Origin: an uncultured Gammaproteobacteria bacterium
GTDB taxonomy: Bacteria; Patescibacteriota; Microgenomatia; UBA12405; UBA6130
DNA: 38,060 nucleotides
Reading direction: 5' to 3'
Assembly: GCA_964540975.1 (NCBI GenBank)
Contig: CAZIOQ010000055.1
Location: forward strand, 1 to 38,060
The position numbers were made by a program, and so were the translations under genes. Shown piece by piece: positions 16,457 through 26,762 of this stretch; the first letter of the stretch is position 1; the number at the start of each line of letters is the position of its first letter. The notes beneath the pieces are model-generated. The model saw only the letters and a program-made list of their open reading frames with translations. It searched no databases and was not told where the DNA came from.

Positions 16457-16480
16457 CATTTTTCTTTGGGGCGACTCTTT

Positions 16481-17206
16481 TTAGGCGGGCAATTTGTCCC
16501 AAATATTAGTCGGACCTTCCTTTCTTTTTTGGTTTTCGATCGCTTCTTGTTTTTGGTGAATTAAAATTCTTATCTCTTCGACCATTTCTTGATTTTGGCT
16601 GATCCAATATCTTTCCTCCAAACGCTGAAGCAAAAACAGCTCAAAATGAGCAAGATTACCAGAGCGATTAACTGCCTCAAGGCTATCAAGGTATCTTTCT
16701 TTTTGGGAAGGCCAGATAATGATTGGTTTTAAGTCAAGTAGTTTCGCTACCAGATCAGCGAAAAGTCTGCCAGTACGGCCATTACCATCTTCAAAAGGAT
16801 GAATTCTGACAAAAATATAGTGGCTAAAAGCAACTGTTTGAATTTTTTTGGCTAAAGATTCCCTGGTTCGAGGAGCTGTTTTTAACGGTTCAATTTTGTT
16901 ATTTAAATCACTAACAAGTTCTCTCATTAGTTCAGGCACTCGCAGGTAATGGGGTGGGGTGACGCTGGCCTGAGAAATGCCCACATTACAAGTCCGATAT
17001 TTTCCGGTGGCACTTTCTGGCAAAATTCCATCCATAACCATAAAATGAATTTGTTTTATTGTTTCTTCGCTAATTGCTTCTTTTTTTCTTGCTATCCTAT
17101 CAGCATATTGCCATGCCCGATGAGCATTCTGAAAAGCTCTTATAGCTAATTTTTCTTGACCAAAAGGAAATTCAGGGGTTGGTTGGTTTGTTTGGATCTC
17201 CACCAT
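16481..17206 (-). CDS. Fic-domain protein (AMPylase-type toxin)
   Basis: Carries the canonical Fic motif HPFEDGNGRTGR (HxFx[D/E]GNGRxxR). The ATG at 17206 is preferred over the TTG at 17221. Confidence 0.9.
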   Translation of the reverse strand: MVEIQTNQPTPEFPFGQEKLAIRAFQNAHRAWQYADRIARKKEAISEETIKQIHFMVMDGILPESATGKYRTCNVGISQASVTPPHYLRVPELMRELVSDLNNKIEPLKTAPRTRESLAKKIQTVAFSHYIFVRIHPFEDGNGRTGRLFADLVAKLLDLKPIIIWPSQKERYLDSLEAVNRSGNLAHFELFLLQRLEERYWISQNQEMVEEIRILIHQKQEAIENQKRKEGPTNIWDKLPA

Positions 17207-17487: not shown

Positions 17488-17883
17488 TCACTGTGGGTCA
17501 AGATGAAGCAGACTCTGCTTTGCCGGCGAGGAGGCAGTATTCTCCCTAGGCGCCAACCTGTTTTCGCCTCTTAGGTGGACGGATATATTAGGTTTCCAAA
17601 AATGGGATTTTAAATCAACCTGGAATTTGCCAATAAATTTTATTTCCTCTTTTTTTAATTTTTCTTTTTGGGTTTTTGCTCCGCCGAAGCTGTAATTTTT
17701 TGCCAAAAAACCAAAGCGATTAATTACCCGATGACAAGGAATATTTTTATCTTTATTGGCATGAAGTGCCCAGCCGACAATTCTTGAATCTTTGATTCTC
17801 AAAGCTTTGGCAATTTCTCCGTAAGTAGTTACTTTGCCTTTGGGAATTTTGGCAACTAAATTGCGAATTTTTCTAAAAGTCAT
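17488..17883 (-). CDS. MGMT-family (Ogt C-terminal domain only) alkyltransferase-like protein with an aberrant C-terminal extension
   Basis: Contains TTYGEIA and IPCHRVI (active-site PCHR). The family-like sequence ends near FWKPN. The last ~32 codons read through the 39-nt repeat motif. Confidence 0.85.
   Translation of the reverse strand: MTFRKIRNLVAKIPKGKVTTYGEIAKALRIKDSRIVGWALHANKDKNIPCHRVINRFGFLAKNYSFGGAKTQKEKLKKEEIKFIGKFQVDLKSHFWKPNISVHLRGENRLAPRENTASSPAKQSLLHLDPQ
17545..17583 (+). repeat. 39-nt hairpin motif, copy A (second copy at 24352..24390)
   Basis: cctaggcgccaacctgttttcgcctcttaggtggacgga versus cctaggtgtcaacctgtttccaccttttaggtggacgga. Identity is 34/39, all five differences are transitions, and both copies have the same orientation. 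Confidence 0.75.
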
Positions 17884-17962
17884 TAATTTTTACAAGATCA
17901 TATCTATCTAAATCTAATCTTTAAGGTTAGAATTTTCTCACTCAGACCCATTTTTTACCCTA

Positions 17963-18713: not shown

Positions 18714-18844
18714 ATAGGTTACGAAACATTTTAGACATTGAGTAATTTGGATCATTACGCCAGGGTTTATCCTCTCTTTGGGTTTTAAATCACCCTTAGA
18801 CTACTTGTTTGAGAAAGGAGGGATGTCTAAAAAGTCTGTAACCT
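18714..18844 (+). repeat. 131-bp direct repeat, copy 1 (transposase C-terminus plus right terminus)
   Basis: Matches 24403..24533 at 129/131 positions by eye. Confidence 0.9.
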
Positions 18845-23007: not shown

Positions 23008-24344
23008 TTGTTAATGGAGGATTTATCAGCAGTTATTCTTTTAGGCGGCGGCGCCAGTTCTCGTTTTGCTCCCTTTCAAGAGAAAAACCTCTTTTCGTTT
23101 TTAGGTAAATCTTTAGTTGAACACCAAGTGGCAAGATATAAGAAAAAAGGGTTGGGGAAAATTATTGTCGTTACTAATCAAGAAAATTTTTCTCAGATTA
23201 AAAAAATTGCCCGAAAAGAAGATAAAAAAATTGAAGTGGTTATTCAGAGGGGCGAGGGAATGGCCGGAGCGGTTTTAACTGGTTTATCTTTTCTTAAAGA
23301 AAGTCAACCGGTTCTGATTGCTAATATGAATGATCTTTTTGATGAATCGTTTTTTGAAAATTTTTCTAAAACTTTAAAACAAAAGGGAAAAATTAATCTT
23401 TTAATCGGCTATTACTGCCCAAGCTATTTTCCCGGCGGCTATTTGATTTTGAAAGGCAAGCGGGTTTTGGGCGTGATAGAAAAGCCTGGGGAAGGTAAAG
23501 AACCGTCAAAATATATCAAATTGGTTTTTGATTATTTTCCTGAGGCAAAAAAATTAGCCTTTTTCTTAAAAAACGCCAAAAGCAGCAAAGATGATGTTTA
23601 TGAAGTGGCTTTATCTAATATGATGGCGAAAAAAGAAGTGTTTTTGATGCTGGAGCATCGGGGAGTTTGGCAGACTTTGAAATACCCTTGGCATATTTTA
23701 GGGGTTCAGGAATATTTTTTAACCACGATTAAAAGGAATATTGCCAAAGACGTTCAGATTGCGGCGGGAGCGAAAATAATTGGTCCGGTGATTTTGGAAA
23801 AAGGAGTGAGGGTTTTTGAAAATGCGATTGTGAGAGGGCCGGCTTTTATTGGTTCAGGAACGATTGTGGGCAATGGAGTGCTGATAAGAGAATCATTAAT
23901 TGGTACAAATTGTGTTGTTGGTTACAACACCGAAATTGCCAGAAGTTATGTCGGCGAGGGTTGTTGGTTCCATTCAAATTATATCGGCGATTCGGTTTTA
24001 GGCAATAATATTTCCTTCGGCGCCGGCGCGATTACTGCCAATCTTCGTTTGGATGAACAAGAAATTAAAGTGGAGGTAAAAGGAGAAAAAATTAATACTG
24101 GCCGGAAAAAATTAGGCAGTATTATTGGCGATAATGTTCGGATTGGAATTAATGTCTGTTTGTGTCCAGGGGAAAAATTGGCCAAGGTTGTTTTGTTGGT
24201 CCGGGAGTGATTTTAAATCAAGATCTTGGAGAAGAGAGGTTTTTATCTTTAAAACAAACCCAGATTGTTAAAAGAAATCGTTTTGAAACAAGCGAAAAAC
24301 AAAGAAAAGCTTTTTTAGAAGCATTGACAAAATCAAAAAGATAG
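23008..24344 (+). pseudogene. Sugar-phosphate nucleotidyltransferase with a C-terminal left-handed beta-helix, split by a 1-nt frameshift in an A5 run
   Basis: The N-terminus reads AVILLGGGASSRF. Hexapeptide repeats run to GINVCLCPG and then continue in another frame as KIGQGCFVGPGVILNQD (ORF 24162..24344). One extra A at 24173-24177 would restore a single frame. Confidence 0.8.
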
Positions 24345-24351
24345 CCTCATT

Positions 24352-24390
24352 CCTAGGTGTCAACCTGTTTCCACCTTTTAGGTGGACGGA
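24352..24390 (+). repeat. 39-nt hairpin motif, copy B
   Basis: See copy A. Here a perfect 7-bp stem (TCCACCT ttt AGGTGGA) sits 8 nt after the stop codon at 24344. Confidence 0.75.
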
Positions 24391-24402
24391 GAGTGGGAAT
24401 GA

Positions 24403-24533
24403 ATAGGTTACGAAACATTTTAGACATTGAGTAATTTGGATCATTACGCCAGGGTTTATCCTCTCTTTGGGTTTTAAATCACCCTTAGACTACTTGTTTG
24501 AGAAAGGAGGAATGTCTAAAAAGTCTGTGACCT
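24403..24533 (+). repeat. 131-bp direct repeat, copy 2 (transposase C-terminal remnant)
   Basis: 129/131 identical to 18714..18844. Confidence 0.9.
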
Positions 24534-24538
24534 GTACG

Positions 24539-25621
24539 TGTCTAGGTCCAAACACATTCCGTACACTTCATAACTAATGAAAGGGCGTTACATACAATGG
24601 AGTGTATATGACAGCCCACAAAATACTTCCGGGGGCAAAAACTTTAGCAAGGATTCTGGATATTAGTCCAGAAGCTAAAAGGAGACTGAGGTGGCTTGAT
24701 TGGTATTTGCCCACGGAAGAAATGCTCAACTAACCTGCCGCCACTTTGGGATATCTCCTGATACTTTCTACCACTGGAAGAAAAGATTTAAACCCGGTTG
24801 TTTGGTAACCCTAGAAAGCTATTCTTCTTTACCCCATTCCTTCAGGCAATTCAGAATTCCTTTGGAAACTGTTAATCTGATTATTCAATTAAGAAGGGAG
24901 GAGATGGGTTTATCCAAATACAAGCTTTTTTTAATCCTTAAAAGAGATTATGGTGTTACTCTTTCTCCTTCCTCTATTGGTAGGATCCTTATCAAGAAAG
25001 GATTAATTAAAGAAGCCAGGATCTCCAAAAATGTTAAAAGAAGAAGGAAAATTAATTATGTTATTCCCAGGATTAGAGCCTCAAAGCAGTTAAGATATCA
25101 ATATCCAGGATTTCTAGTTCAGGTTGATACCAAACACTTAATTATCTTAGGAAGAAAATATTATCAGTTTACTGCCATAGATTTTATTCAAAATTCAGTT
25201 TCTCTTATGCCTATACTAAGGCTTCCTCTTCAACTGCTAAAGATTGTCTTTTAAGGCTTGTTAATTATTTTCCTTTCAAGATCAAAGCCATTCAAACAGA
25301 TAATGGCTCAGAATACCTCCTTTACTTTCATCAGGAATGTGTAAAAAGAGAAATCAAACACTATTTCTCTCATCCAAGAAATCCCAAAGATAATTCCCCG
25401 GTAGAAAGATTAATCCAAACCACTGATATGAATTATGGTTGTTTGATGAAACTCTAATCTTTGAACTAGACTATCTTAACCAGAAATTCTCTTTTTGGAT
25501 TGGCTGGTACAATACCTACCGGCTACACCAGTCCCTTAACTATTTAACTCCTATGGAGTATTATCAACTTAGTCAACAAAAGAAAGGAGGAAAAGTGGAC
25601 GGGATGTAGTGGACCAGAACA
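24539..25621 (+). mobile_element. IS481-like insertion sequence (~1.08 kb) with imperfect terminal inverted repeats and an inactivated transposase
   Basis: IRL is TGTCTAGGTCCAAACACATTCCGTACACTT. The reverse complement of IRR is TGTTCTGGTCCACTACATCCCGTCCACTT. The internal transposase carries a DDE/rve signature. Confidence 0.8.
24608..25609 (+). pseudogene. IS481-family transposase, frameshifted in at least three places
   Basis: MTAHKILPGAKTLARILDISPEAKRRLRWLDWY shifts frame into FAHGRNAQLTCRHFGISPDTFYHWKKRF...VQVDTKH...YQFTAIDF. Another shift leads into IQTDNGSEY...SHPRNPKDNSPVER, and a further shift into WYNTYRLHQSLNYLTPMEYY. Confidence 0.85.
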
Positions 25622-25664
25622 GGAATTTGCAATTAAAGCCAAAATTTGCTAGCCTTAAGCGGTG

Positions 25665-26762
25665 ATGAACTTGTCTAGTTTGGTTGATAGTTTCCGGCAG
25701 AATCTGGTCGAATTCTTAAGTGCTTACAAGCGATTTTTTTATCATCGGCTGACAAGAATATTTTTTGGGTTAAACAAAGTTAAACGAGTAATTTCTTGGG
25801 TTTTGTATCGCCAACGAGGGAGATTTGCCCAACCGTTAGCTCATTTTTGTTTAACAATTTTTATTTTTTTCGGCGTTTATCTTTCACCTCGGTTAGAAGC
25901 AGTTCTCACCAAAACTGAGTCGCAAATACCGAATTTATATCTTGCCTCTCCTGTTGGAGCTTTAGAAGAGATTGATCTTTATACTCCCCAAACAGTGATT
26001 AGTCCTATTAGAGGAGAGATAACAGAATATGTTGTTAAAGAAGGAGAAACCTTATCCTCAATTGCAAAAAAATTTGGCGTTTCACTAGATACTATTATTT
26101 GGGCGAACGAGATCAAATCGGCTAAAGAAATTAAAGCTGGCCAAAAACTTAAAATTCCGCCGGTAACCGGAATAGTTCATAAAGTGAAAAGAGGAGAAAC
26201 TGTTTATTCGATTGCTAAAAAATATGGTGTTGATCCGCAACAGATAGTTGATTTTCCTTTTAACACATTTGCGAATGACGAAACATTCGCCTTAAGCGTT
26301 GGTCAAGATTTAGTTGTTCCTAATGGAGTGATGCCTGAGATTAAACCACCACCAGCGCCTCAGTATGTCGCTACTGTTCCAATTCAACCTGGTGTTGCCG
26401 GCACAGGAGAATTTACTTGGCCAACTTCTGGTTATATCTCACAAAACTTTTCTTGGTATCATCAGGCAATTGATATTGCTAATAAAGATGCACCAGTGGT
26501 GGTAGCTGCTGATGGAGGTTGGATAGAGACAGTAGTGATGAGTCACTATGGTTATGGGAATCATCTGGTGATTAATCATGGTAATGGCTACAAAACCTTG
26601 TATGCTCATTTAGCCAAAGTCAATGTTCAAGTAGGTGACCGAGTTAATCGGGGAGCAACGATTGGTAGGATGGGGTCTTCTGGTCGTTCTACTGGAATTC
26701 ACCTTCATTTTGAAATTATTAAAGATGGAGTCAAGTTAAACCCCTTGTCAGTTTTAAAATAA
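25665..26762 (+). CDS. LysM-domain M23-family peptidoglycan metallopeptidase
   Basis: Two LysM repeats (YVVKEGETLSSIAKKFGV and HKVKRGETVYSIAKKYGV). M23 motifs HQAIDIA and GIHLHFEI. Confidence 0.9.
   Translation: MNLSSLVDSFRQNLVEFLSAYKRFFYHRLTRIFFGLNKVKRVISWVLYRQRGRFAQPLAHFCLTIFIFFGVYLSPRLEAVLTKTESQIPNLYLASPVGALEEIDLYTPQTVISPIRGEITEYVVKEGETLSSIAKKFGVSLDTIIWANEIKSAKEIKAGQKLKIPPVTGIVHKVKRGETVYSIAKKYGVDPQQIVDFPFNTFANDETFALSVGQDLVVPNGVMPEIKPPPAPQYVATVPIQPGVAGTGEFTWPTSGYISQNFSWYHQAIDIANKDAPVVVAADGGWIETVVMSHYGYGNHLVINHGNGYKTLYAHLAKVNVQVGDRVNRGATIGRMGSSGRSTGIHLHFEIIKDGVKLNPLSVLK

Follow-up and report, generated by a model that had tools for sequence, protein, structure and literature searches.

A hairpin repeat in a Microgenomates genome resembling the REP and TIR elements of RAYT-like Y1 transposases

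REP repeats are short palindromic sequences of mostly intergenic location that, in the arrangement termed the REPtron, flank the gene for a Y1 transposase with an HUH motif (Nunvar 2010, PMC2817692; Bertels and Rainey 2011, PMC3116915). They occur as single copies (singlets) and as inverted doublets, each of which folds as one long hairpin, as in the REPINs of Pseudomonas, and they carry a conserved tag on the 5' side of a variable hairpin; the E. coli enzyme, YafM or TnpA-REP (PDB 4ER8, PMC3479197), is the model for hairpin binding and cleavage to which we refer below. Here we examine a 39-nt motif that is present twice in contig CAZIOQ010000055.1 of assembly GCA_964540975.1, a stretch of 38,060 nt (hereafter the window) from a genome of the class Microgenomatia. 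We propose that the motif is, quite probably, a REP/TIR-type hairpin repeat of a RAYT-like Y1 (HUH) transposase of single-stranded DNA, and that it belongs to a family of such repeats in Microgenomates. Our literature search found no paper that ties RAYT, TIRYT or REP elements to Microgenomates, Parcubacteria or the candidate phyla radiation.

Two other described systems are relevant. The first is the TIRYT or TIRtron (Di Nocera et al. 2013, PMC3733652), which has been equated with subclass 2.1 of the TnpA-Y1 proteins (Quentin et al. 2018, PMC6006769). It combines longer RAYT-like proteins that have a C-terminal extension with flanking inverted repeats that show partial self-complementarity, make up families of moderate abundance in which singles and dimers occur, and have the G-rich motif GGGGWSAS in common (PMC3733652). 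The second comprises the insertion sequences (ISs) of the IS200/IS605 group, such as IS608 and ISDra2, in which the Y1/HUH enzyme TnpA, a protein of about 140 to 155 aa, reads subterminal hairpins on single-stranded DNA; the hairpins of the left and right ends are distinct, and an IS of this type has several near-identical copies.

The two copies of the motif, here called copy A and copy B, are both located on the plus strand and are 34/39 identical, as the original prediction made from the window sequence had described. The five differences, at motif positions 7, 9, 20, 22, and 26, are without exception transitions, and none of 100 shuffled sequences yielded two motif matches. Also as described there, copy B contains a perfect 7-bp stem, and the two stem changes in copy A produce U-G and G-U pairs on the plus strand. 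A second hairpin of 5 bp in copy B was absent from that earlier description. The features are listed below, with scores from a covariance model, R1, which was built from an alignment of 16 copies of the wider family.

17545 to 17583, plus strand: copy A of the REP-like repeat, decayed (R1, 40.3 bits)
17547 to 17560, plus strand: hairpin 1 of copy A, weakened by T>C at 17551 and 17553
17563 to 17579, plus strand: hairpin 2 of copy A, in which two pairs are wobbles (T-G and G-T)
24352 to 24390, plus strand: copy B of the REP-like repeat, the best preserved in the genome (R1, 45.7 bits)
24352 to 24366, plus strand: tag CCTAGGTGTCAACCT of copy B
24354 to 24367, plus strand: hairpin 1 of copy B, TAGGT-gtca-ACCTG, 5 bp, within the near-invariant tag
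24370 to 24386, plus strand: hairpin 2 of copy B, a variable stem-loop of 7 bp (24370-24376 with 24380-24386) and a 3-nt loop

Copy B is predicted to form two hairpins on either strand, with z-scores of -2.2 as RNA and about -3 as DNA. The canonical hairpins of copy A are not its minimum-energy fold as DNA (z -0.4), and as RNA it folds no better than shuffled sequences (z +0.5). A 7-nt inverted repeat, TCATTCC (24345-24351) and GGAATGA (24395-24401), surrounds copy B and extends the predicted fold (z -2.4 for a 79-nt stretch); nothing similar is present at copy A, and the inverted repeat may be due to chance. The region is present in a single public run, a DNA run from a hot-spring metagenome, and in no listed RNA run. 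Logan contigs from this run, which are independent of the record and served as an assembly check alone, span copy A as well as the junction between copy B and an adjacent 131-nt repeat, and the arrangement is therefore not an assembly artefact of the record.

When the motif and its right flank were used as a BLAST query against the 132 genomes of the order, the motif portion had short matches in the genomes G004, G022, and G027, and these opened up the family. Its members consist of the near-invariant 15-nt tag CCTAGGTGTCAACCT, which is itself able to form a 5-bp hairpin, followed by 2 to 3 bases and then by a hairpin of 5 to 9 bp, the stem of which varies from genome to genome and yet remains paired. 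Examples of such stems are CCACCT/AGGTGG, CACACCCC/GGGGTGTG, ACACCT/AGGTGT, and TCAAC/GTTGG. In the alignment of 16 copies from 6 genomes, 12 columns are invariant, 89% of the cells in the two-hairpin structure are paired, and helix 1 is paired in 95%.

In hairpin 2, four of the seven pairs have changed on both sides across the family, that is, in a compensatory manner. The covariation score of this hairpin was 0.178 compared with 0.111 in shuffled alignments, a value that was reached by 1 of 500 shuffles and exceeded all slid controls, although the relatedness of the sequences inflates such figures. The arms are also strongly biased: in 50 distinct copies the 5' arm was always rich in C and A and the 3' arm in G and T, with 202 C-G cells and no G-C cells. 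This fixed bias points to recognition of hairpin 2 by sequence as well as by shape. The copies in the window and a third copy on contig 40 of the same genome form a small, diverged, genome-specific subgroup with ACCTGTT and a T-rich loop in common, and its closest relative is a copy attached to a Y1 gene remnant in G022.

The evidence that connects the repeats to a transposase comes from five genomes in which the motif flanks a gene for a Y1/HUH protein of 223 to 226 aa, at a distance of about 25 to 35 nt before the start codon and about 10 to 60 nt after the stop codon.

G490: singlet 59 nt downstream of a 224-aa open reading frame (ORF) (Pfam Y1_Tnp, E 2.5e-11)
G004, contig 36: inverted doublet 34 nt before the start and singlet 21 nt after the stop of a gene for a 226-aa Y1 homologue
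G022, contig 38: inverted singlets 23 nt before and 11 nt after a gene for a 223-aa Y1 homologue
A Shapirobacteria genome: inverted copy ~25 nt upstream and doublet downstream of a Y1 gene
One further genome: inverted copy ~25 nt upstream of a Y1 gene

The doublet upstream of the Y1 gene in G004 is predicted to fold as single-stranded DNA with an energy of -17.6 kcal/mol (z -5.9). The Y1 remnant in G022 ends at the TAG of the motif. The Y1 paralogues are 27% to 48% identical to one another, and others of them in the motif-bearing genomes are flanked by their own variants of the design, CCnnGGTGTCAAnnn plus a hairpin. The HUH motif and the catalytic tyrosine are invariant in these proteins. The Y1 domain covers residues 11 to 120 of 224 and is followed by a C-terminal extension of ~100 aa, in which Pfam identified neither a helix-turn-helix (HTH) nor a DnaA-C domain. 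The best NCBIfam model was that of the REP-associated tyrosine transposase (RAYT, NF047646), with 45.2, 54.5, and 68.6 bits against a cut-off of 80 bits, whereas the IS200 model gave 18.8 bits against a cut-off of 55. Among solved structures, the best relative was E. coli TnpA-REP (PDB 4ER8, E 6e-4), followed by ISDra2 TnpA (PDB 2XM3) with an E value of 0.2.

Contig 38 of G022 also contains a 232-codon ORF (L048 9623-10423) that resembles the classical IS200 TnpA and has a degenerate HUH motif (NHVY). It is bracketed by two motif copies on the same strand, and both its start and its end are read from the repeats.

The Microgenomates repeats thus have in common with REPtrons and REPINs the short palindromic and mostly intergenic repeat, the singlets and inverted doublets that fold as one long hairpin, the conserved tag 5' of a variable hairpin, and the position on both sides of a Y1/HUH gene whose product has 4ER8 as its best solved relative and RAYT as its best NCBIfam model. 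They differ in the host lineage, in the length of the Y1 protein (223 to 226 aa with the ~100-aa extension, compared with 165 aa in E. coli), and in the number of Y1 genes, as some of the genomes contain numerous diverged paralogues that each go with a separate variant of the hairpin, instead of a single RAYT for each family. Similarities to the TIRYT systems include the longer protein with a C-terminal extension, the flanking, partly self-complementary inverted repeats, and the moderately abundant families of singles and dimers. The paralogue variants GGGGTGTC (L046) and CCGGGGTGTCA match the TIRYT motif GGGGWSAS at 7 of 8 positions, whereas the window's own tag, TAGGTGTC, fits at only 5 of 8; unlike in TIRYT proteins, neither of the two C-terminal domains was found here by Pfam. 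Protein length and the G-rich tag would place the system closer to the TIRYT/TIRtron.

The likeness to IS200/IS605 elements consists of a Y1/HUH enzyme with hairpins of the kind read on single-stranded DNA, and of the degenerate IS200-type tnpA between two same-strand motif copies in G022. Set against this are the far weaker match of the Y1 proteins to the IS200 model than to the RAYT model, the nature of the Y1 genes as diverged paralogues rather than identical IS copies, the same repeat in inverted orientation on both flanks instead of distinct left and right ends, and the lack of tnpB in the window genome, where PF07282 alone was searched.

At the replication fork, where DNA is single-stranded, the Y1 enzyme would, by analogy with E. 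coli TnpA-REP and IS608, attach to the folded hairpin and use the adjacent conserved tag to position its cut, and the repeats would thereby be excised and re-inserted.

At a threshold of E<=1e-7, strong R1 copies were present in 8 of the 132 genomes of the order and in none of the 104 genomes of its largest family. The numbers were 27 in G022, 15 in G004, 7 in G027, 5 in G024, 2 in G001, 1 each in G010 and G006, and 2 in the window genome. With up to 3 mismatches, the 39-mer itself matched only 2 sites in the 638-kb window genome and none in 60 relatives, and the exact 14-mer was found in only 3 of 401 genomes of the class. The third copy in the window genome, a decayed one with 19 bits, was detected at a laxer threshold between divergent genes on contig 40. 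A search of a collection of 185,579 species for the exact tag-plus-stem pattern returned 34 stretches, where a rough estimate gives ~9 by chance. Their titles were mostly Candidatus Shapirobacteria, Daviesbacteria, Curtissbacteria, Microgenomates, and Patescibacteria, with one Yonathbacteria and a few other labels. The original prediction had named a lack of further copies, or stems broken at random, as grounds for its rejection; instead, many copies exist in relatives and their stems change with compensation.

Based on crude ORF calls, 41 of 44 sampled places were located outside any ORF of at least 90 codons. Six of the 44 were abutted inverted doublets, all of them in G004 and none in the window. 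Among the 38 singlets, 19 were downstream of and co-oriented with a gene, 16 were not, and 3 could not be scored, and copies were found in convergent, tandem, and divergent intergenic regions. Intergenic placement in either orientation is the behaviour of a DNA repeat and not that of a 3' signal in a transcript, and the window copies, being located at gene 3' ends, are in a typical position for repeats of this type. In G004, a purine-rich repeat of ~130 to 270 nt with GTGAAAAG-like words adjoins motif copies (contig 69, L021 1220-1490); with 61 BLAST matches on 22 contigs, at no fewer than 55 separate sites, in G001, it represents a separate and abundant repeat family.

Several observations weigh against the assignment to a RAYT-like system. 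The Y1 proteins remain below the cut-off of the RAYT model, and the window motif does not have the GTAG (or CGTC) that adjoins the hairpin in REPs beside its hairpin 2, the tag being instead the 15-nt, hairpin-forming CCTAGGTGTCAACCT. Binding and cleavage of the motif by the Y1 protein would be by analogy with distant relatives, namely E. coli TnpA-REP and IS608, and the placement of the repeats is only as good as the ORF calls. No Y1 gene of the window genome is flanked by the window type of motif, so that the link to Y1 genes rests on other genomes; the assembly is 93% complete in 63 contigs, and unassembled repeats could hide further copies or a cognate gene. A comparison of G004 and G001 revealed no clean pair of a filled and an empty site, so that the mobility of the repeats is putative. 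At one orthologous site, the motif in G004 (contig 64, L023 923-964) corresponds in G001 (contig 13, L108 about 1475-1515) to CCAGGTGTC followed directly by the hairpin TCCGCC agcc GGCGGA. This difference suggests either that repeats turn over while the site stays fixed or that R1 misses members of a wider superfamily.

The window genome encodes Y1 proteins of its own. A complete gene for a 225-aa, RAYT-like Y1 protein, 55% identical to that of G004, is located on the minus strand of contig 16 (L038 1456-2133). On either side of the gene there is a hairpin of another kind, TTCTAACCT-nnn-AGGTYAGAA (L038 1379-1399 and 2222-2242), with four or five tandem TTTCTAACCT half-arms upstream, and the hairpin recurs once more on the same contig, 2.8 kb off (L069 1274-1294), with the common flank TTTATTCGAACCTCTTA. 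Contig 40 (16459-16692; L068 4960-5193) contains the beginning of a second RAYT-like gene, with its start at L068 5050, of which about 40 to 48 codons remain before the contig ends. Upstream of this gene there is an inverted variant element and a partial tandem duplicate of it. The tag of the element, CCGAGGTGTCAATAGG or CCGAGGTGTCAA, is related to that of the motif, but its stem, ACACTCC/GGAGTGT, is different.

These findings bear on the question of whether the copies in the window can still be mobilised, with the product of the second Y1 gene on contig 40 acting on them in trans. Copy B has retained both hairpins, the third copy is located 3.9 kb from the contig 40 gene, and the element upstream of that gene has a tag that agrees with the motif in 11 of the first 12 bases. 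The hairpin stem of the gene's own element is different, however, and the three copies differ by at least 13% from each other, two of them no longer folding, whereas active REP and REPIN populations contain many near-identical copies (PMC3116915). Current activity thus seems unlikely. With 2 strong copies and 1 weak copy in 638 kb, the genome does not contain many dispersed copies. Since the three copies are diverged, since none is located beside a Y1 gene, and since copy A has no convincing fold, the window and contig 40 copies most likely represent immobile remnants of a population that was formerly larger.

As noted in the original prediction, copy A is located inside the 3' extension of an ORF with an MGMT domain (17488-17883, minus strand), to which it is antisense. 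The feature concerned is the following.

17488 to 17586, minus strand: foreign C-terminal tail (~32 residues) of the MGMT-domain ORF, read through copy A into the left flank

The Pfam domain DNA_binding_1 spans residues 4 to 80 of the 131 residues of the protein. Homologues in five relatives (52% to 61% identity) have open frames of 102 to 116 codons and align only to residues 2 to 97, which indicates that the last ~32 residues are foreign; 13 of these are derived from the motif and the remainder from the left flank. Copy A has abolished or bypassed the stop codon of the MGMT gene and thereby lengthened the protein, an incidental effect. Just upstream of the gene, at 17912-17932, there is an 8-bp hairpin, ATCTAATCT tta AGGTTAGAA, which corresponds with 2 mismatches to the hairpin that flanks the Y1 gene on contig 16 and has similar TTAGA-type repeats behind it. 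Two different REP-like elements thus bracket the MGMT gene. A gene end has also been altered on contig 38 of G022, where the gene for seryl-tRNA synthetase (L048 14464-15753) stops at the TAG of an inverted motif copy (L048 15725-15766), the repeat thus supplying the end of an essential gene.

The end of the ORF at 24162-24344, stop codon included, and the start of copy B are 7 nt apart. The gene to which this ORF belongs, a nucleotidyltransferase/hexapeptide gene (23008-24344), is split just upstream of copy B into the overlapping ORFs 23008-24210 and 24162-24344 by an apparent frameshift. Twelve nt after copy B there is a 131-nt repeat (24403-24533), 129/131 identical to 18714-18844, in agreement with the IS debris reported before. 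It represents the 3' end of a decayed IS481-like transposase gene, and beyond it there is a second IS481-like copy, which contains several frameshifts, so that copy B is located at the break between the frameshifted nucleotidyltransferase gene and the IS481-like debris. Judging from this one junction, copy B may mark a hot spot for insertions. In the hot-spring DNA run, the summed contig depth of the IS481-like sequences (24224-24825 and 25428-25728) was 320 to 409, compared with ~19 elsewhere in the region, and pieces of the decayed IS are located at four contig ends of the genome (C2, C4, C33, and C58), which indicates that this IS family is highly repeated in the sample.

The original prediction had taken the two wobble pairs of copy A as a sign of selection on an RNA structure of defined polarity. 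Such an RNA element would be a terminator or a processing or stabilising hairpin that is selected on the plus-strand transcript at gene 3' ends, and both window copies do touch a gene 3' end. Any transition in a Watson-Crick pair, though, appears as a G-T wobble if one strand is read and as an A-C mismatch if the opposite strand is read, and each stem change therefore has a 50% chance of being a wobble on the named strand; two of two corresponds to p = 0.25. In hairpin 2 of the 50 distinct copies, G-T and T-G cells (6) were about as frequent as A-C and C-A cells (5), and there is thus no strand asymmetry of the proposed kind. Classical REPs have been reported (PMC3733652) to affect termination and mRNA stability, and some singlets in G004 are followed by 3 to 4 T. 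Neither window copy, however, has an intrinsic terminator in the form of a hairpin with a T-run, the tails being CGGAGAG and CGGATAT. Rfam returned nothing relevant, either at the gathering threshold over the window or at E<=5 around both copies, and the RNA fold of copy A is, as stated above, no better than random. In addition, copy A is antisense to the MGMT gene, and of the 35 singlets that could be oriented, 16 do not share the direction of the upstream gene, some being located between divergent genes. We therefore consider a strand-specific RNA element very unlikely.

Slightly less probable still is an origin from the neighbouring IS481-like element, as a solo inverted repeat, a miniature derivative or an insertion target (NCTAGN). 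Like the ends of IS481-type elements, the motif begins with CCTAGG and contains TGT. Copy B is separated by only 12 nt from the truncated IS481-like remnant and the frameshifted copy behind it, and a 6-mer and a 7-mer are common to the motif and the IS ends. The resemblance to the left and right inverted repeats (IRL and IRR) that had been pointed out consists of these two words, and local alignments to either end of the neighbouring element were no better than those of shuffled sequences (p ~0.22 each), so that the motif was rejected as an IS481 end. In other genomes the tag and hairpin flank Y1 genes and are located in ordinary intergenic DNA, although rve/IS481 genes were not searched there. 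The motif pair is also far more diverged (5/39 differences) than the adjacent pair of IS remnants (2/131; Fisher p 0.007), which argues for different histories. Of the earlier idea of a miniature IS-end derivative, which came closest in spirit, the notion of a repeat recognised by a transposase stands, but the transposase would be a RAYT/TIRYT-like Y1 protein and not that of the IS481-like neighbour. The CTAG may have served as a target for IS481-like insertion, to judge by the single junction at copy B.

The suggestion of a CRISPR repeat, a tracr-like RNA or a remnant of a TnpB/IscB guide RNA (omega RNA) derives from a superficial similarity in the length of 39 nt and the 3' hairpin, and is highly improbable, given that no arrays were found, the copies being single or abutted inverted pairs, that there was no Rfam hit, and that PF07282 (TnpB/Cas12f TNB) had no match in the genome but was found in 8 of 14 control genomes (other TnpB families, IscB and cas were not searched). 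Two further candidates were discarded. A coding remnant with the minus-strand peptide SVHL[KR]G[GE]NRL[AT]PR would have only 1 silent difference in 5, with 3 of 4 changed codons altering the residue, and the family is intergenic; a tRNA fragment or att site is not accompanied by any tRNA nearby.

With the motif assigned to the REP/TIR-type repeats of RAYT-like transposases, what appeared to be an RNA signal or an IS fragment is moved to a known class, that of REP-type repeats served by a Y1 transposase. The element is of a known kind (REPtron/TIRtron), and the window copies are ordinary relics of it. A well-defined subfamily, with a 15-nt tag and a covarying hairpin, is added in Microgenomates; it provides annotators with a simple marker for these repeats and accounts for the odd C-terminal tail of the MGMT protein. 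A bolder version is tentative, and we regard it as possible but doubtful: that this is a lineage-specific RAYT-like system of Microgenomates, with its long invariant tag and arm-biased, covarying hairpin, whose repeats are not neutral but reshape gene ends through stop codons and translated tails, as in the MGMT gene and the seryl-tRNA synthetase gene of G022, and mark breakpoints of ISs and rearrangements. If so, the copies in the window would be fossils that date such events. As it stands, the window genome illustrates that a genome of 0.64 Mb can keep fossils of a family of repeats that its relatives still contain in abundance.

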